Made by a program: the position numbers and the translations under genes
Source of the DNA: a virus
Lineage: Duplodnaviria > Caudoviricetes
Reading direction: 5' to 3' (one strand)
Length of the DNA: 63,581 bases
IMG/VR virus record: IMGVR_UViG_3300036830_000158
Location: 1-63,581 of that record
The notes under the pieces: generated by a model
The model's input: only the letters and a program-made list of their open reading frames with translations
Told to the model about the DNA's origin: nothing
Database searches by the model: none
Part shown: piece after piece, positions 48,522 to 53,264 of the stretch
Layout of the letters: each line of letters begins with the position of its first letter
How positions within the stretch are numbered: position 1 is the first letter of the stretch

Positions 48522-49067
48522 ATGGAGCGAGAATTCCCTTTGCAATGGCCGGCGAGCCAGCCACGGACCGAGCGCAGGGACCCCGGCAAGTTTCAGCGCT
48601 CACTAAACGATTCTCGTGTCCATCTAATCAAGCAGGTTCAATTGGCAGGAGGCTCCGATATTCTGATCTCCTCCAACTATGGCGGTCTCAGCGGCAAGTC
48701 TCCAGCCGATCCGGGCGTCGCGGTTTATTTCAACCGCCGCAATAAGCGGCTCGCAATGGGCTGCGACCGCTGGCGCCTGGTTGCTCACAATCTGACCGCG
48801 CTCGGCAACAGCATAGAGGCAATGCGCGGCATCGACCGCTGGGGCTGCAGCCATTTGATGGAACAGGCCTTTTCGGCATTTGAGGCGCTTCCCGCGCCCG
48901 GATGGCGACAGGTGCTTCAATTAATCGGGGGAAGGCCGTCCCTTGAAGATGCCGAGGCCAGCTACCGGGCGCTGGTCAAGAAGCATCACCCCGATGCAGG
49001 AGGCAACCAGGAGCAGTTCCTGCGGATTCAGAAGGCCGTCGAAGACGCCAGGCGGGAGTTGAATTGA
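48522..49067 (+). CDS. J-domain-containing phage protein
   Basis: PLQWP...DPGVAVYF...CDRW; C-terminal YRALVKKHHPDAGG. Confidence 0.85.
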   Translation: MEREFPLQWPASQPRTERRDPGKFQRSLNDSRVHLIKQVQLAGGSDILISSNYGGLSGKSPADPGVAVYFNRRNKRLAMGCDRWRLVAHNLTALGNSIEAMRGIDRWGCSHLMEQAFSAFEALPAPGWRQVLQLIGGRPSLEDAEASYRALVKKHHPDAGGNQEQFLRIQKAVEDARRELN

Positions 49068-49102
49068 GCGAGAGTCCGGCAACTTTATGGAGGATATGGA
49101 CA

Positions 49103-49555
49103 ATGGGATACAGCACAAGCTTTGAGGGCGTCATTAAATTCAGCCGCGATCTTACTGCCGCTGAATTGCGTGAGATCAATGAGATCCTTGAGATTGACGA
49201 TGTCGCCGAACACGCCAAGAGCATCGGCTTCATAGCGACGAAAGAGGATATGTTCAGTTGGCTGGCTCTTCGTCTCGCCAAGGATTTCACAGGCCTTGAA
49301 TGGGATGGGAGCGAAAAAACCTACGGCATGATCACGGCGCTCAACGTCATCATGCAGGTGATCAAGCGGAAGATCCAAGACCTGTCATTTAGCGGTCGAA
49401 TGACGGCCCAGGGTGAAGAGGTCGGGGATATCTGGGGCATTGAAGTATCTGATGGGAAGGCGGTCCGCACTGAGCTGAAAAAGCCGGCCATGATGAAATG
49501 CCCTCGATGCCGTGAATGGTTCAGAACCGAAGATGCCGAAGAACGCTCAGAATAG
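49103..49555 (+). CDS. Hypothetical protein
   Basis: MGYSTSFEG...WDGSEKTY...QGEE..D.W; C-terminal CPRC. Confidence 0.6.
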   Translation: MGYSTSFEGVIKFSRDLTAAELREINEILEIDDVAEHAKSIGFIATKEDMFSWLALRLAKDFTGLEWDGSEKTYGMITALNVIMQVIKRKIQDLSFSGRMTAQGEEVGDIWGIEVSDGKAVRTELKKPAMMKCPRCREWFRTEDAEERSE

Positions 49556-49556
49556 C

Positions 49557-49629
49557 CGCACCGCGTCGCCCCGCTACGCAGCGCCACGCTTCGCCACGCC
49601 TCGCGGCGCTTCGCATCGCATCGCAACGT
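49557..49629 (+). repeat. Pentamer array 1, (CGC-NN)x14; candidate guide RNA
   Basis: CGC at exact 5-nt period; NN = ac gt cc ta ag ca tt ca ct gg tt at at aa; intergenic. Confidence 0.85.
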
Positions 49630-49650
49630 CAATAAAAAGGAAGGCCGCAT

Positions 49651-50256
49651 ATGTCACTGACGACCGTTACAGCCCAGCTCAAATCGGTTTCGCCCTATTC
49701 GCAGAGTAAGCATTATCAGGTCGATCCTCTTCAGGGGGAATCGAAGGACGACCATTACCGCCGCACCTGGCGCAATCATATGCATTGCGATCAGGACGGG
49801 CAGGTTTTCATTCCCCCGAACGCATTCAAGAATGCGGTCGCCGAAGCCGCGAAGTTCTTGTCGATCTCGGTCCCCGGCGGTGGCAAGGCGAAATATACCA
49901 AACATTTCGAGGCCGGGATTCTTGTGATCAAGCCGGTCTTGCTGGGTGTCCACAAAGACAGCGTCGAATGTGAAAATCTGTTCCTTCCCAGCGACGGGCG
50001 GCGAGGCGGCGGCAGCCGTGTCAATAAGTACTATCCCTTCATTCCGGATTGGACGGCTGCGGTCGAATTTCTCATCACGGATGAAACCGTGCTGCAAAGC
50101 TCCGTCGTGGATAAAGACCGCACCATTTTCGAAATCGTGCTGGAGGCCACCGGGAAGCTGATCGGGATCGGCCGCTTCCGTCCGCGAAACAACGGCTATT
50201 ATGGCCGGTTCAAAATCGAAACGCTTGAGATCAGCCGCATGGCTATAGCTGCTTAA
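49651..50256 (+). CDS. Stand-alone RAMP (Cas7/Csm3-like) protein
   Basis: N-terminal beta strand + SP, VFIPPNAFKNAVAEAA helix, W...F strand, Gly-rich loop GKLIGIGRFRPRNNGYYGRF. Confidence 0.7.
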   Translation: MSLTTVTAQLKSVSPYSQSKHYQVDPLQGESKDDHYRRTWRNHMHCDQDGQVFIPPNAFKNAVAEAAKFLSISVPGGGKAKYTKHFEAGILVIKPVLLGVHKDSVECENLFLPSDGRRGGGSRVNKYYPFIPDWTAAVEFLITDETVLQSSVVDKDRTIFEIVLEATGKLIGIGRFRPRNNGYYGRFKIETLEISRMAIAA

Positions 50257-50260
50257 TCCG

Positions 50261-50327
50261 CGCAGCGCTACGCGCCGCTCCGCGCCGTGGCGCGCCGCCC
50301 TGCCACGCATCGCGCCGCAACGCAACG
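50261..50327 (+). repeat. Pentamer array 2, (CGC-NN)x13 (two variant triplets); candidate guide RNA
   Basis: NN = ag ta gc tc gc gg gc cc ca at gc aa aa; begins 4 nt after the RAMP stop codon. Confidence 0.85.
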
Positions 50328-50328
50328 A

Positions 50329-50850
50329 ATGAGTACAGAAATGTTGAAGCCGCCGGAATTCCGCCAATCCAGGGAAGCGCAGATCATCTCGGAACTGTTT
50401 CGAGATATCGAGCAGAAGGACGGCGGCCTGATCACATGGCGAGAACTCTGTTCGGCGACAGGCAAGGGCCGGGCTGAACTGAAAAGCCCGATCCAGACGG
50501 CCATTCGCCGGATGCGCAAAGACCACGGGCTCGTCATCGAGAATGACCGCGACCTTGGCTACCGGCTGAAGGCCAACAATCGTCTGGTGGGGTCGGGCCG
50601 GACCGCGCTGGAAAGATCCAGGCGGATTGAAAAAGTTGGCCTGGAAAAGATGGATTGCTGCGAGCTGGCCAAGCTGTCGATGGAAGAGAAGGCCGAGCAC
50701 ATGGTGGTCAAATCCGCGATTCAGCTCGGCTTGATGACCAAGCGCTCTCGCGTGCGCAGCAGTCTGACGCAGATGGTCATCCGCAAGCACAACGCGCTGA
50801 CCGAGCAGGAAATGCTGCAAGCCATCGTCGAAAGGCTGGGGCAGAAATGA
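50329..50850 (+). CDS. Winged-helix-like accessory protein between pentamer arrays
   Basis: ITWRELCSATG...IQTAIRRMRKDHGLVIENDRDLGYRL. Confidence 0.6.
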   Translation: MSTEMLKPPEFRQSREAQIISELFRDIEQKDGGLITWRELCSATGKGRAELKSPIQTAIRRMRKDHGLVIENDRDLGYRLKANNRLVGSGRTALERSRRIEKVGLEKMDCCELAKLSMEEKAEHMVVKSAIQLGLMTKRSRVRSSLTQMVIRKHNALTEQEMLQAIVERLGQK

Positions 50851-50859
50851 GTGGTTTAT

Positions 50860-50919
50860 CGCCGCGCCCCGCATCGCATCGCGGCGCTCCGCCCCGCCCC
50901 GCCACGCATCGCAACGCAC
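50860..50919 (+). repeat. Pentamer array 3, (CGC-NN)x12; candidate guide RNA
   Basis: NN = cg cc at at gg tc cc cc ca at aa ac. Confidence 0.85.
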
Positions 50920-50940: not shown

Positions 50941-51210
50941 ATGAACGAGCATGTCAAGCCCCGCAATGTTCTTCCGGCCTCGCTGCCGCCGCGGGGCTTG
51001 AGGCGTGTGGAGGCGGCGGCATATGTCGGGGTCTCCCCGAGTACTTTCGATGAAATGATCCGCGACGGGTTCATGCCTACCCCGAAGCGGTTCCGCGGCT
51101 GCATTATTTGGGACCGCATGGCATTGGACGAAGCCTTCACTTGTCTTCCTGACAGGGAAGGCGCAAAACCGGCCTCGACCAATCCGTGGGACGCCATGAG
51201 CAATGTTTAA
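50941..51210 (+). CDS. xis: Excisionase (AlpA/MerR-like HTH)
   Basis: PRGLRRVEAAAYVGVSPSTFDEMIRDG.MP.P...WDR..LD; directly upstream of the integrase. Confidence 0.8.
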   Translation: MNEHVKPRNVLPASLPPRGLRRVEAAAYVGVSPSTFDEMIRDGFMPTPKRFRGCIIWDRMALDEAFTCLPDREGAKPASTNPWDAMSNV

Positions 51211-52298
51211 TGGTTAGGGTGCGGCTCAAATATGTTATCGCCGATGTTGATCGGCACGGGAACGTTCGCTATTATTTTCGCCGTCGCGGACGCAAGGGCA
51301 AACTCCGATTGCCTGGCCTGCCTGGCTCCGATGAGTTCAACGCGGCCCATGCCGCCGCTCTAGCAGGCAGGCCGCCGCCGGTCAAAATTACTCAACCGCT
51401 TTTAGAGCGCGCACCGCTCGGGACGCTTGAATGGCTCCGCAAGAGCTATTTCTCTTCCATCGAGTTCGGTGGGCTTTCTTCTTATACGCAGCGCGACCGC
51501 CGGAATATTCTGAAGGCGATTTGCGCCGAAACCCTCTCGCCCCATGATCCAACGCGCATTGGCGACCTGCCCTTCGTGCAGATGTCGGAAAAGAGCGTTC
51601 GGATGCTCCGCAACCGCAAGAAAGACGCCCCGAACGCAGCGAACAATTGGGTCAGCGCCCTGAGCACTCTCTTCAAATGGGCAATCGAGGAGAACCTTGC
51701 CGAAGTCAATCCGGCGCGCGACGTGCCGAAAATCGGAATATCGACTGAAGGCTATCATACCTGGGCAACCGAGGAGATCAAACAATACGAGGCTGTCCAC
51801 CAGATAGGAACCCAGGCGCGTCTCGCCCTCGCGCTGCTCGCCTATACCGGGCTGCGTCGAAGCGATGTCATCCGCATTGGCCCCCAGCACGTCGATGCTG
51901 ATGGCGCGCTGGTCCTCAAGCCTCAGAAGACGAAGAAGACTAACGTAACCGTCCATGTGCCGATTTTGCCGGAGCTGCAAAAAGTGATCTTGGCAACGCG
52001 CTGTGGACATCTCACATATCTGACCAGCGAATGGGACCGGCCATGGTCCGCGGCGGGCTTTTCGTCTCGTTTCAAGCAATGGTGTAAGGAGGCCAAGCTG
52101 GGGCATTGCAGCGCTCATGGCCTGCGAAAAGCTGGGGCCTGTTTAGCTGCCGAGAATGGTGCGACAGAACAGCAAATGATGGCAATTTTTGGCTGGAAAA
52201 CAGCCAGCATGGCGAGCAAATATACGCGGGCCGCGAACCGCAAAAAGATCGCTGGCGCAAGCATCCATTTGCTCTCGAAAAGGCGGAACGAGACTTGA
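51210..52298 (+). CDS. int: Tyrosine integrase
   Basis: TGLRRSD, HGLRK, IFGW, KYTR catalytic motifs; DRHGNVRYYFRR arm-binding N-terminus. Confidence 0.93.
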   Translation: MVRVRLKYVIADVDRHGNVRYYFRRRGRKGKLRLPGLPGSDEFNAAHAAALAGRPPPVKITQPLLERAPLGTLEWLRKSYFSSIEFGGLSSYTQRDRRNILKAICAETLSPHDPTRIGDLPFVQMSEKSVRMLRNRKKDAPNAANNWVSALSTLFKWAIEENLAEVNPARDVPKIGISTEGYHTWATEEIKQYEAVHQIGTQARLALALLAYTGLRRSDVIRIGPQHVDADGALVLKPQKTKKTNVTVHVPILPELQKVILATRCGHLTYLTSEWDRPWSAAGFSSRFKQWCKEAKLGHCSAHGLRKAGACLAAENGATEQQMMAIFGWKTASMASKYTRAANRKKIAGASIHLLSKRRNET

Positions 52299-52500
52299 AC
52301 AAATGTGTCCCACTTTCGCTCCCGATTTTCCATCGGTGGGACCATTTAGCGAGAAACACCAATGAAATCAATGCTCAATTTAAGCAGATAAAGTTTTATC
52401 TTTTCTTTCTTTTTCTAGTGGAAACAACAACTTAAACGGCGGTGGGACTCATTTTTATTTTGATTTTTATTAAGCTTTTCGCCGTTTGTGTCCCACCCAA
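52299..52500. other. Putative attP
   Basis: AT-rich stretch after int with four GTCCCAC arm-type repeats: 52304 and 52487 direct, 52335 and 52441 inverted. Confidence 0.65.
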
Positions 52501-52835
52501 AAAGGGGGCCGAGCCGGCCAATGTGATCGATTTGAAGCTATCCAAGAGGAAGGCGGGGTGATGGGCGGCGAGGATAGTCAACCATGCACGCCGAGTTGGT
52601 GCGGCGAAGGCCATGGGGCGAAATGCTTCAACGCCGGACGTTGCCTTCGGAACGTAAAACGCGGATCCCATGCGAAAGGGGATGATGAAGCCCGCAGACC
52701 AGGAACCAAAGCGTCGGCGGGGGGAGTCCCTAAGTAGGCCGGTCGCCCGGCGGAGGGCGACTGCAACGTCTGAGATATGGACGCGACAGGAGGGAGAGAC
52801 CCCGTCATTTTGAAGCTATCGAAGAGGAGAGCAGT

Positions 52836-53264
52836 TTGAGTAAGCGCAAAGGCGATCCCGGCTATTCCGATGGCTGGTGCATTCATTTTCGAAGCATCGG
52901 TCAATTTGATACGTGTGAGGTGGGTGTCAGCTATAACGATTTTCATGGCACGCCATTCGCCGAACGTCCCTGCTTTTTGCTCAAGGGCAAGCCGAAACCG
53001 GGCGCGAAATCATGCCCGCACTTGCGCCTTCCGACGGCGGAAGAGATGGCTGCGCATGAGATTTGGGTGCAGGGGCACATGGGCAAGGTGGCGACCGTCA
53101 TGAAGGGCATCGCCCCATGGCGACAGAAGCACAAGGGCAAGTCAGCGCGAGAAGTCGTCGAATGCCCGGCTTGCAGGGGCCGACTTCATCTCTCGATAGC
53201 GGCATATAATGGGCACGTCCACGGCAGATGCGAGACCGATGGCTGTGTTAATTGGATGGAGTAG
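52836..53264 (+). CDS. Cys/His-rich hypothetical protein
   Basis: CIHF, CPAC, HVHGRC...C motifs; GAGGAG RBS, TTG start. Confidence 0.6.
   Translation: MSKRKGDPGYSDGWCIHFRSIGQFDTCEVGVSYNDFHGTPFAERPCFLLKGKPKPGAKSCPHLRLPTAEEMAAHEIWVQGHMGKVATVMKGIAPWRQKHKGKSAREVVECPACRGRLHLSIAAYNGHVHGRCETDGCVNWME

Follow-up and report, generated by a model that had tools for sequence, protein, structure and literature searches.

Positions 49557-50919 of a 63,581-nucleotide viral DNA (IMG/VR record IMGVR_UViG_3300036830_000158, hereafter the window) very probably constitute a complete Viral Interference Programmable Repeat (VIPR) module of a temperate phage. The module contains the gene vipr, which encodes a small RAMP protein, the gene vap, which encodes a winged-helix protein, and three genes for the guide RNAs known as vrRNAs, each an array of CGC-NN pentamers. 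The elements are arranged as array-vipr-array-vap-array and are followed by an excisionase-like gene (xis) and a tyrosine integrase gene (int), the order that a first-pass annotation of the DNA had read. The same annotation took the locus for a candidate non-CRISPR RNA-guided system resembling phage VIPR systems. The kind is not new but already in print as VIPR, the name that the annotation had given (10.64898/2026.04.26.720920).

The VIPR systems are described in 2026 preprints. Vipr is a minimal RAMP present mainly in proviruses and phages, and the locus usually consists of vipr and vap. The vrRNA comprises 9-16 YNNGG units and then a 3' tail. The vrRNAs co-purify with Vipr, repress transcription and are reprogrammable, and double-stranded DNA (dsDNA) is recognised through NN pairing alone, with one target base per unit skipped (10.64898/2026.04.26.720920). 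Vipr binds with one protomer to each pentamer and sequesters the fixed triplet; pairing with the target is left to the NN bases, and the target base that is skipped flips out into a pocket of the thumb bundle (10.64898/2026.04.26.720927). The formation of the ribonucleoprotein, the 1-nt skip, the silencing of green fluorescent protein and of phages, and the cryo-electron microscopy structures are experimental for the SUSP1 and P. fulva systems only (10.64898/2026.04.26.720920, 10.64898/2026.04.26.720927).

Arrays, proteins and related loci

The three arrays (A1, A2 and A3) are intergenic, each placed between two genes, and their period is exactly 5 nt. The triplet CGC is exact in 37 of the 39 units pooled over the three arrays and position 1 is C in 38 of them, while the dinucleotides vary (Table 1), so that the near-invariant CGC and variable NN described in the first reading stand. 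A1 begins 2 nt past the stop of the upstream open reading frame (ORF) and ends 22 nt short of the vipr ATG. A2 is bounded by the vipr stop codon (50254-50256) and the vap ATG (50329), and its 3' end, CGC-AA-CGC-AA-CG, lies 1 nt ahead of this ATG. A3 follows the stop codon at 50848-50850; it ends in CGC-AA-CGC-AC, and the xis ATG (50941) comes 21 nt later. The motif CGCAACG, noted earlier at the array ends, is present at or near the 3' end of A1, A2 and A3 alike.

The scan for period-5 tracts took segments of 40-45 nt and required that a single base make up 85% or more of a phase column, in 3 or more of the 5 columns. The scan of the window returned exactly A1, A2 and A3 and no other tract, and the same scan of 50 simulated windows (first-order Markov, equal dinucleotide make-up) returned none. 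Chance is excluded as the origin of the arrays because three tracts occur in the real window and none in the 50 simulated ones. Tandem Repeats Finder detects A1 alone, as multiples of 5.

The Vipr protein of the window matches no Pfam family at E <= 0.1 and no NCBIfam family at E <= 0.001, and its sole PHROG match, phrog_4652, is of unknown function. The only significant sequence match among the chains of the Protein Data Bank (PDB) is the SUSP1 Vipr protein (chain 36pp_D), with a phmmer E-value of 0.0048 for the single sequence. A profile built from 40 homologues recovers SUSP1 Vipr at E 2.5e-5, with profile positions 99-191 aligned to residues 111-191 of the chain, a segment that takes in the thumb and the G-loop. 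The residues invariant over the 40 homologues are present in the protein of the window. The AlphaFold2 model, for which the 40-homologue alignment was the input, has a pLDDT of 91.4 and a pTM of 0.86. With this model, Foldseek gives 119 PDB matches at E <= 0.001, the best being a type VII Cas7 (8z4j_J, E 1e-7), and Csm3, Cmr4 and gRAMP are among the further top matches. The VIPR structures cannot be among the Foldseek entries, since that library ends at 8 April 2026; the PDB sequence search fills this gap. By the predicted structure and the sequence homology taken together, the RAMP fold of the 201-aa protein and its kinship with Vipr are established, and the Cas7-like fold of the first reading is borne out.

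The partner protein, Vap, is modelled with a pLDDT of 94.1 and has the predicted winged helix that had been assigned to it from its sequence (Table 1). No named family was found for it in Pfam, PHROGs or NCBIfam, its profile has no match among the PDB sequences below E 0.1 and its model has no Foldseek match at E <= 0.001. Residues 82-150 align, more weakly than E 0.001, to generic helical hairpins. Vap is, according to the model, a winged-helix protein and a predicted DNA binder.

The Vipr family comprises 2121 proteins at E <= 0.001, out of 2253 candidates. A set of 106 loci was assembled from the window, 25 loci of bacterial genomes or metagenome-assembled genomes from many phyla, and 80 loci of viral contigs (the best 80 of 129 relatives). 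The loci were oriented by vipr and the arrays are therefore read on the vipr strand. A period-5 array lies within 1.5 kb of vipr in 86 of the 106 loci, upstream in 48 and downstream in 73, as the first-pass annotation would have it for homologues of a guided RAMP. In 97 of the 106 loci, vipr has a Vap homologue beside it in the same orientation (jackhmmer from 50329-50850), and the gene directly upstream of A1 (49064-49555) is present in one of the 106; the conserved unit is thus vipr, vap and the arrays. The complete order array-vipr-array-vap-array is present in 12 of the 97 loci with both genes. Within the fetched flanks, a tyrosine integrase stands beside the module in the window alone (1/106). 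Some relatives are especially rich in arrays; 11 array calls fall at L070, for instance, and 8 at L100.

The bodies of the arrays have an NN entropy of 3.84-3.89 of 4 bits (3.84 in the CGC-type arrays). In the second- and third-last units it is 2.3-2.9 bits, and the dinucleotide is mostly AA. The CGC-type arrays usually end in ...CGC-AA-CGC-AA-CG and then A/T, whereas the end conserved across relatives is only ...C-AA-xxC-AA-xG with an A/T-rich stretch.

Fixed triplet and residues of the thumb and G-loop

The close Vipr relatives read differing triplets and always keep a pyrimidine at position 3. The triplet is GGC in 43 loci, CGC in 18, GAC in 10, GTC in 6, CTC in 3, GTT in 2, and GGT and CAC in one locus each; two more calls, TCA and GCA, are probably mis-phased. 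All 8 triplet classes have a pyrimidine as base 3, as in the published GGY, and therefore the + strand is the RNA strand. Among the 63 loci with at least two arrays, 61 use a single triplet across their arrays. The triplet thus characterises the locus as a whole, which would be expected were it obliged to fit the local protein. L034 and L035 have one CGC and one CTC array apiece.

The SUSP1 structure indicates which elements of Vipr contact the triplet. G1 is read by H17 and D177, G2 is placed between R138 of the thumb and W178 of the G-loop, and Y3 occupies a purine-excluding pocket with R179 (10.64898/2026.04.26.720927). When the residues of 63 unique proteins with an assigned triplet are compared, the columns most informative on base 1 are positions 112, 128 and 127 (numbering of the window protein). 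L112 occurs with Y128 in 13 of the 14 CGC rows, the exception being L025, a long branch; the GGC rows have V112 in 26/28 and F128 in 26/28. Where base 2 is G, E108 is found in 42 of 43 rows and R175 likewise in 42 of 43. Both are replaced in 7 of the 9 GAC rows (R175 by F, V, T or S; E108 by L, Q, N or V), and position 19 is Gly, not Ser, in 4 of the 6 GTC rows. Positions 108, 112, 127 and 128 fall on both strands of the predicted thumb hairpin 106-131 and position 175 is in the G-loop. Thumb and G-loop are the parts of SUSP1 Vipr that hold the triplet, and the association at 108, 112, 127, 128 and 175 is suggestive: at the level of sequence comparison the triplet tracks thumb and G-loop residues, which is not proof that the residues read it.

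The history of the labels bears on how this association is to be read. A quick tree scatters them, so that CGC needs 9 changes, at least 4 of which are forced by well-supported branches. The independent-pairs test offers only 2 pairs on well-supported branches. In the approximately unbiased (AU) test, grouping the 13 CGC rows into one clade is not rejected (p-AU 0.82, 44 log-likelihood units better than the free search), and neither is GAC monophyly (p-AU 0.40); each residue-triplet association may consequently stem from one ancestral event. Repeated convergent switching of the triplet is unsupported, as a single origin of CGC, and likewise of GAC, survives the AU tests.

It is thus a tentative and rather doubtful proposal that the triplet has been re-specified repeatedly within one Vipr family together with matching gripping residues, giving each phage a private Vipr-vrRNA pair. 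Under the same joint proposal, thumb residues 112 and 128 would set base 1, Glu108 and Arg175 would distinguish G from A at base 2, and the change of Ser19 to Gly would go with T at base 2. The possible benefit is illustrated by published conflicts: the SUSP1 guides silence the recombinase of a satellite, satellites counter by means of solo vrRNAs, through which Vipr is drawn off to decoy sites, and some phages carry orphan vrRNAs against the vipr genes of rivals (10.64898/2026.10.15.759431). If private codes were true, they would shield a phage from rivals that hijack its Vipr through solo or decoy vrRNAs, and they would form a natural set of non-cross-reacting programmable silencers, of which the CGC clade would be one code. 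If the pairing of triplet and residues were causal, it would provide a rule for building orthogonal Vipr/guide pairs and a reason for the diversification, namely the escape from guide hijacking.

Proposed mechanism and alternative explanations

The mechanism proposed for the module is drawn by homology from the characterised SUSP1 and P. fulva systems. Transcription of the arrays would follow the + strand and probably take in the neighbouring genes as well. Vipr protomers would then polymerise along each RNA, one per pentamer, and each pair of protomers would bury C1-G2-C3 and display the two variable bases. The 10-13 displayed dinucleotides would pair with dsDNA as NN-x-NN-x, one target base being skipped per unit, and the resulting R-loop would keep some gene of a rival phage, satellite or prophage from being transcribed. 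The outcome would be silencing and not cleavage, as no nuclease would be involved; indeed, none is encoded inside the vipr-vap-array stretch, as first remarked from the sequence. Two features of the grip mark the clade. The first base C goes with Leu112 and Tyr128 on the thumb, where the G-first relatives have Val and Phe, and G2 and pyrimidine 3 are kept alongside Phe176 and Arg177, which align to the SUSP1 residues stacking on G2 and Y3. The gripped triplet, displayed NN, gapped target and silencing that the first-pass annotation had surmised agree with the published VIPR mechanism and, by analogy, may be extended to this locus. The position just before xis and int, considered with the silencing of a rival recombinase by SUSP1, suggests a role in prophage-prophage competition.

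The targets of the three guides were searched with the published 1-nt skip, that is NN-x-NN-x on either strand. In the window and the other 105 loci (603 kb in all), where skips of 0-3 were allowed, A1 scores at most 18/26, A2 17/22 and A3 15/20, no better than shuffled guides, and the only outstanding score in the 603 kb is a trivial self-match at skip 3. When 200 unique arrays drawn from the whole set of loci were compared in 10-unit windows with the same 603 kb, arrays masked, no skip rule rose above the shuffles; the published skip-rule test did not reproduce on this database, which is small. Exact gapped matches in viral contigs number zero for A1 (13 units), A2 (11), A3 (10) and two 10-unit parts of A1; the metagenome contigs likewise gave zero, both for 11 units of A1 and for 10 units of A3. 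When as many as 3 mismatches are allowed, A1 has no match in 5 records behind related loci, nor in a sample of 401 genomes from the class to which the L001 genome belongs. The NN strings thus led to no phage or host target of the kind first imagined in these searches. Against the window, A1, A2 and A3 all remain below the 80% NN-match threshold of the preprint, which agrees with its finding of no self-targeting (10.64898/2026.04.26.720920).

A number of observations count against the interpretation as a working VIPR module. The collections searched hold no natural target for A1, A2 or A3, and for CGC guides the 1-nt skip would apply by analogy. By the strict criterion, 20 of the 106 loci are without an array. 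The similarity of Vipr to the SUSP1 protein is limited to the C-terminal half, and within it two contact positions differ: D177, which reads G1 in SUSP1, corresponds to R175 in the window, and R138 of the thumb to Y128. Both positions are part of the elements responsible for reading the first bases, and SUSP1 H17 has no counterpart in the alignment, as the N-terminal halves are not alignable. The constants of A2 are worn in two units (one CGT, one TGC). A consensus scan beside the arrays revealed no sigma-70-like promoter or intrinsic terminator, and co-transcription with the flanking genes is therefore the probable mode of expression. Lastly, no RNA sequencing run was found for this DNA; one soil-metagenome DNA run contains 0.37 of its words.

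The worn units of A2 and the lack of a target in any collection searched would suit an idle or decaying remnant, in which the genes and arrays were inherited and the silencing was lost. Such decay is improbable. Both ORFs are intact with confident folds, 37/39 units keep an exact CGC and the residues invariant in 40 homologues are retained, and absent targets are expected given that the competitors of soil phages are poorly sampled. It is more improbable still that the arrays act as DNA, as iteron-like sites through which the winged-helix protein or Vipr would regulate the xis-int end, instead of encoding guide RNAs. In favour of this, the product of vap is a winged-helix protein with predicted DNA binding and its gene lies between arrays, which abut start codons in an operator-like position and for which no separate promoters were found. 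Nevertheless, operator repeats keep the whole unit and here 2 of 5 bases are near-random (3.84 bits); the grammar is strand-specific (pyrimidine 3, AA at the 3' end) and always on the vipr strand; the integrase is beside the module in only 1/106 loci; and the homology is to an RNA-binding Vipr solved with its RNA.

The remaining explanation, that the RAMP is no independent system but serves the CRISPR-Cas locus lying 6.4 kb downstream, perhaps in the capacity of a stray Cas7 or a Cas6-like processing factor, is scarcely credible. The window does contain a type V-like locus, with a 707-aa TnpB-like protein, Cas1 and 29 exact repeats, and the RAMP, first called "solo", is so within its module but has this locus 5-10 kb on in the same DNA (57216-62616). 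However, type V systems use no RAMP, and between the module and the CRISPR locus there are xis, int and unrelated genes spanning about 5 kb; the 28-nt repeat of that locus is without period-5 grammar. Moreover, the vipr-vap-array module recurs in 105 other loci, the flanks of which were not chosen for CRISPR. The reading as a VIPR module is accordingly preferred to these three.

Genomic context and comparison with known systems

The carrier is a soil temperate phage. The window encodes terminase, portal, head-closure, primase and ribonucleotide reductase proteins, RecE/RecT, a repressor-like protein and RusA. The VIPR module comes after these genes, and xis and int are next; the phage context follows from the presence of terminase, portal, RecET, RusA, xis and int. 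The xis stop codon and the likely integrase start overlap as TAATG (51208-51212), which suggests translational coupling; the longest int ORF starts with GTG at 51186. No tRNA was found in the window and no att-like direct repeat of at least 13 nt was recognised between 52251-53000 and 1-45000, where two 13-mers are without evident meaning. A glycosyltransferase, a LuxR-type regulator and the type V-like CRISPR-Cas locus are located beyond the integrase, in a stretch that may be host flank or part of the element. None of the 28 spacers that separate the 29 exact repeats is matched elsewhere in the window or in the 105 loci; hits within 60848-61368 are self-matches, as the array was masked only from 61400. 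One 33-nt spacer is duplicated five units apart (62068-62100 and 62373-62405). At 1586-1723, within about 140 nt, three perfect short CCG/CGC runs of 6.7-7.7 copies each lie inside long ORFs on both strands.

Table 1. Features of the VIPR module and of its surroundings in the window.
Feature	Position	Strand	Description
vrRNA array A1	49557-49628	+	14 CGC-NN units, then CG; exact CGC 14/14; 11 distinct NN; series AC GT CC TA AG CA TT CA CT GG TT AT AT AA (last unit AA)
vipr	49651-50256	+	201 aa; single-domain RAMP (Cas7-like)
Vipr thumb hairpin	residues ~106-131
Vipr G-loop	residues 172-186		GIGRFRPRNNGYYGR
vrRNA array A2	50261-50327	+	13 units; exact CGC 11/13; 9 distinct NN; series AG TA GC TC GC GG GC CC CA AT GC AA AA, then CG
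vap-like accessory gene	50329-50850	+	173 aa
Vap winged helix (predicted)	residues ~13-81
Vap C-terminal helical hairpin/bundle (predicted)	residues 82-171
vrRNA array A3	50860-50919	+	12 units; exact CGC 12/12; 8 distinct NN; series CG CC AT AT GG TC CC CC CA AT AA AC
xis, excisionase-like HTH	50941-51210	+	HTH_17, phrog_25900; outside the module
Tyrosine integrase	ORF from 51186, likely ATG 51210, to 52298	+	Phage_integrase 4e-14, phrog_1 1e-40; outside the module
DUF6205-like gene	49064-49555		directly upstream of A1; DUF6205 weak (E 0.009), phrog_38666 (4e-7); ends in a CxxC motif
187-aa phage protein	48504-49067		two genes upstream of the module; phrog_9210 E 5e-33; C-terminal DnaJ (J-domain) weak, E 7.6e-4, below the Pfam cut-off
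Type V-like CRISPR-Cas locus	57216-62616		~5 kb past the integrase
TnpB/Cas12-like protein	57216-59339		707 aa; NF040570 guided_TnpB 4e-22, OrfB_IS605, N-terminal DUF2695
Cas1, I-E kind	59400-60263		TIGR03638 3e-90
101-aa ORF	60260-60565		may be cas2
CRISPR array	60820-62616		29 exact 28-nt repeats at 60820-62555 and one truncated copy; 33-nt spacers

The structural likeness of Vipr invites a comparison with the Class 1 CRISPR systems, represented by Cas7 of type VII, Csm3 of III-A and Cmr4 of III-B. In the predicted model this likeness is structural only. The module lacks a repeat-spacer array, Cas5, Cas6, a large subunit and adaptation genes, and the backbone step of Class 1 is 6 nt with 5 reading bases, whereas the module has 5 nt and 2 reading bases. 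A Class 1 effector is rejected, as the neighbours are the DUF6205-like gene, vap, xis and int and there is no match to the Cas7, Csm3 or Cmr4 sequence families in Pfam or NCBIfam. The window has a single CRISPR array, that of the TnpB-like/Cas1 locus, in which no RAMP gene is present.

The module has the features of VIPR loci: its RAMP is small, with one RRM core, a thumb and a glycine-rich loop, its pentamer arrays have at least 4 units and a vap gene is adjacent. Like the published loci, it is a two-gene locus in a provirus context, composed of a small single-RRM RAMP and an accessory gene with predicted DNA binding, and its intergenic, same-strand pentamers of three fixed and two hypervariable bases surround the genes, with unit numbers within 9-16. 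The discovery preprint, which covers 667 systems and names the accessory genes vap1-6, distinguishes seven VIPR types; a DNA-binding vap occurs in types II, VI and VII, and winged-helix-like domains are named in the legend of fig. S21 (10.64898/2026.04.26.720920). The absence of a nuclease from the module is shared with the types that have such a vap.

Type II, which includes SUSP1 and P. fulva (PDB 36pp and related), shares with the window the architecture of thumb and G-loop and a vap with a winged-helix-like domain. The G-loop pair of aromatic residue and Arg is F176-R177 in the window, W178-R179 in SUSP1 and Y176-R177 in P. fulva; the conservation of this pair, which grips G2 and Y3, is in line with the G2 and C3 retained in the arrays of the window. 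On the other hand, only the C-terminal 80-90 residues are alignable (E 2.5e-5), and type II arrays are placed one upstream and three downstream of the genes, whereas those of the window are interleaved with them. In the SUSP1 clade the 3' tail is a pseudoknot of ~40-60 nt, for which the arrays of the window have no room, the next ATG being 22, 1 and 21 nt away. Instead of such a tail they end in one to three AA units, mostly followed by CG (in A3, by CGC-AC). The module thus departs from the SUSP1 / P. fulva clade of type II in the pseudoknot tail and in the Asp and thumb-Arg features, all of them absent.

The main difference from the published systems is the fixed triplet, CGC instead of GGY, in which G2 and Y3 are kept. 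The term "CGC" does not occur in the main text of the two first preprints (10.64898/2026.04.26.720920, 10.64898/2026.04.26.720927). However, the methods of one list NNNGG, YNNNG and NNNNG as alternative repeats (10.64898/2026.04.26.720920), and CGC-NN fits YNNNG when read as C-NN-C-G. The proposal that CGC-NN is a distinct variant therefore stands insofar as CGC differs from GGY, and falls short insofar as a published alternative may already accommodate it; the CGC constant and the arrays without tails may be minor variations within the published "related consensus". VIPR itself is a discovery only months old, an RNA-guided recognition of DNA through a gapped code, for which an origin before CRISPR has been proposed, and the locus adds nothing to its principle. 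It offers a clean natural example in a soil temperate phage, in which two genes and three CGC-type guides take up about 1.4 kb: a system of an already published kind, unusual mainly in having CGC in place of GGC or GGT.

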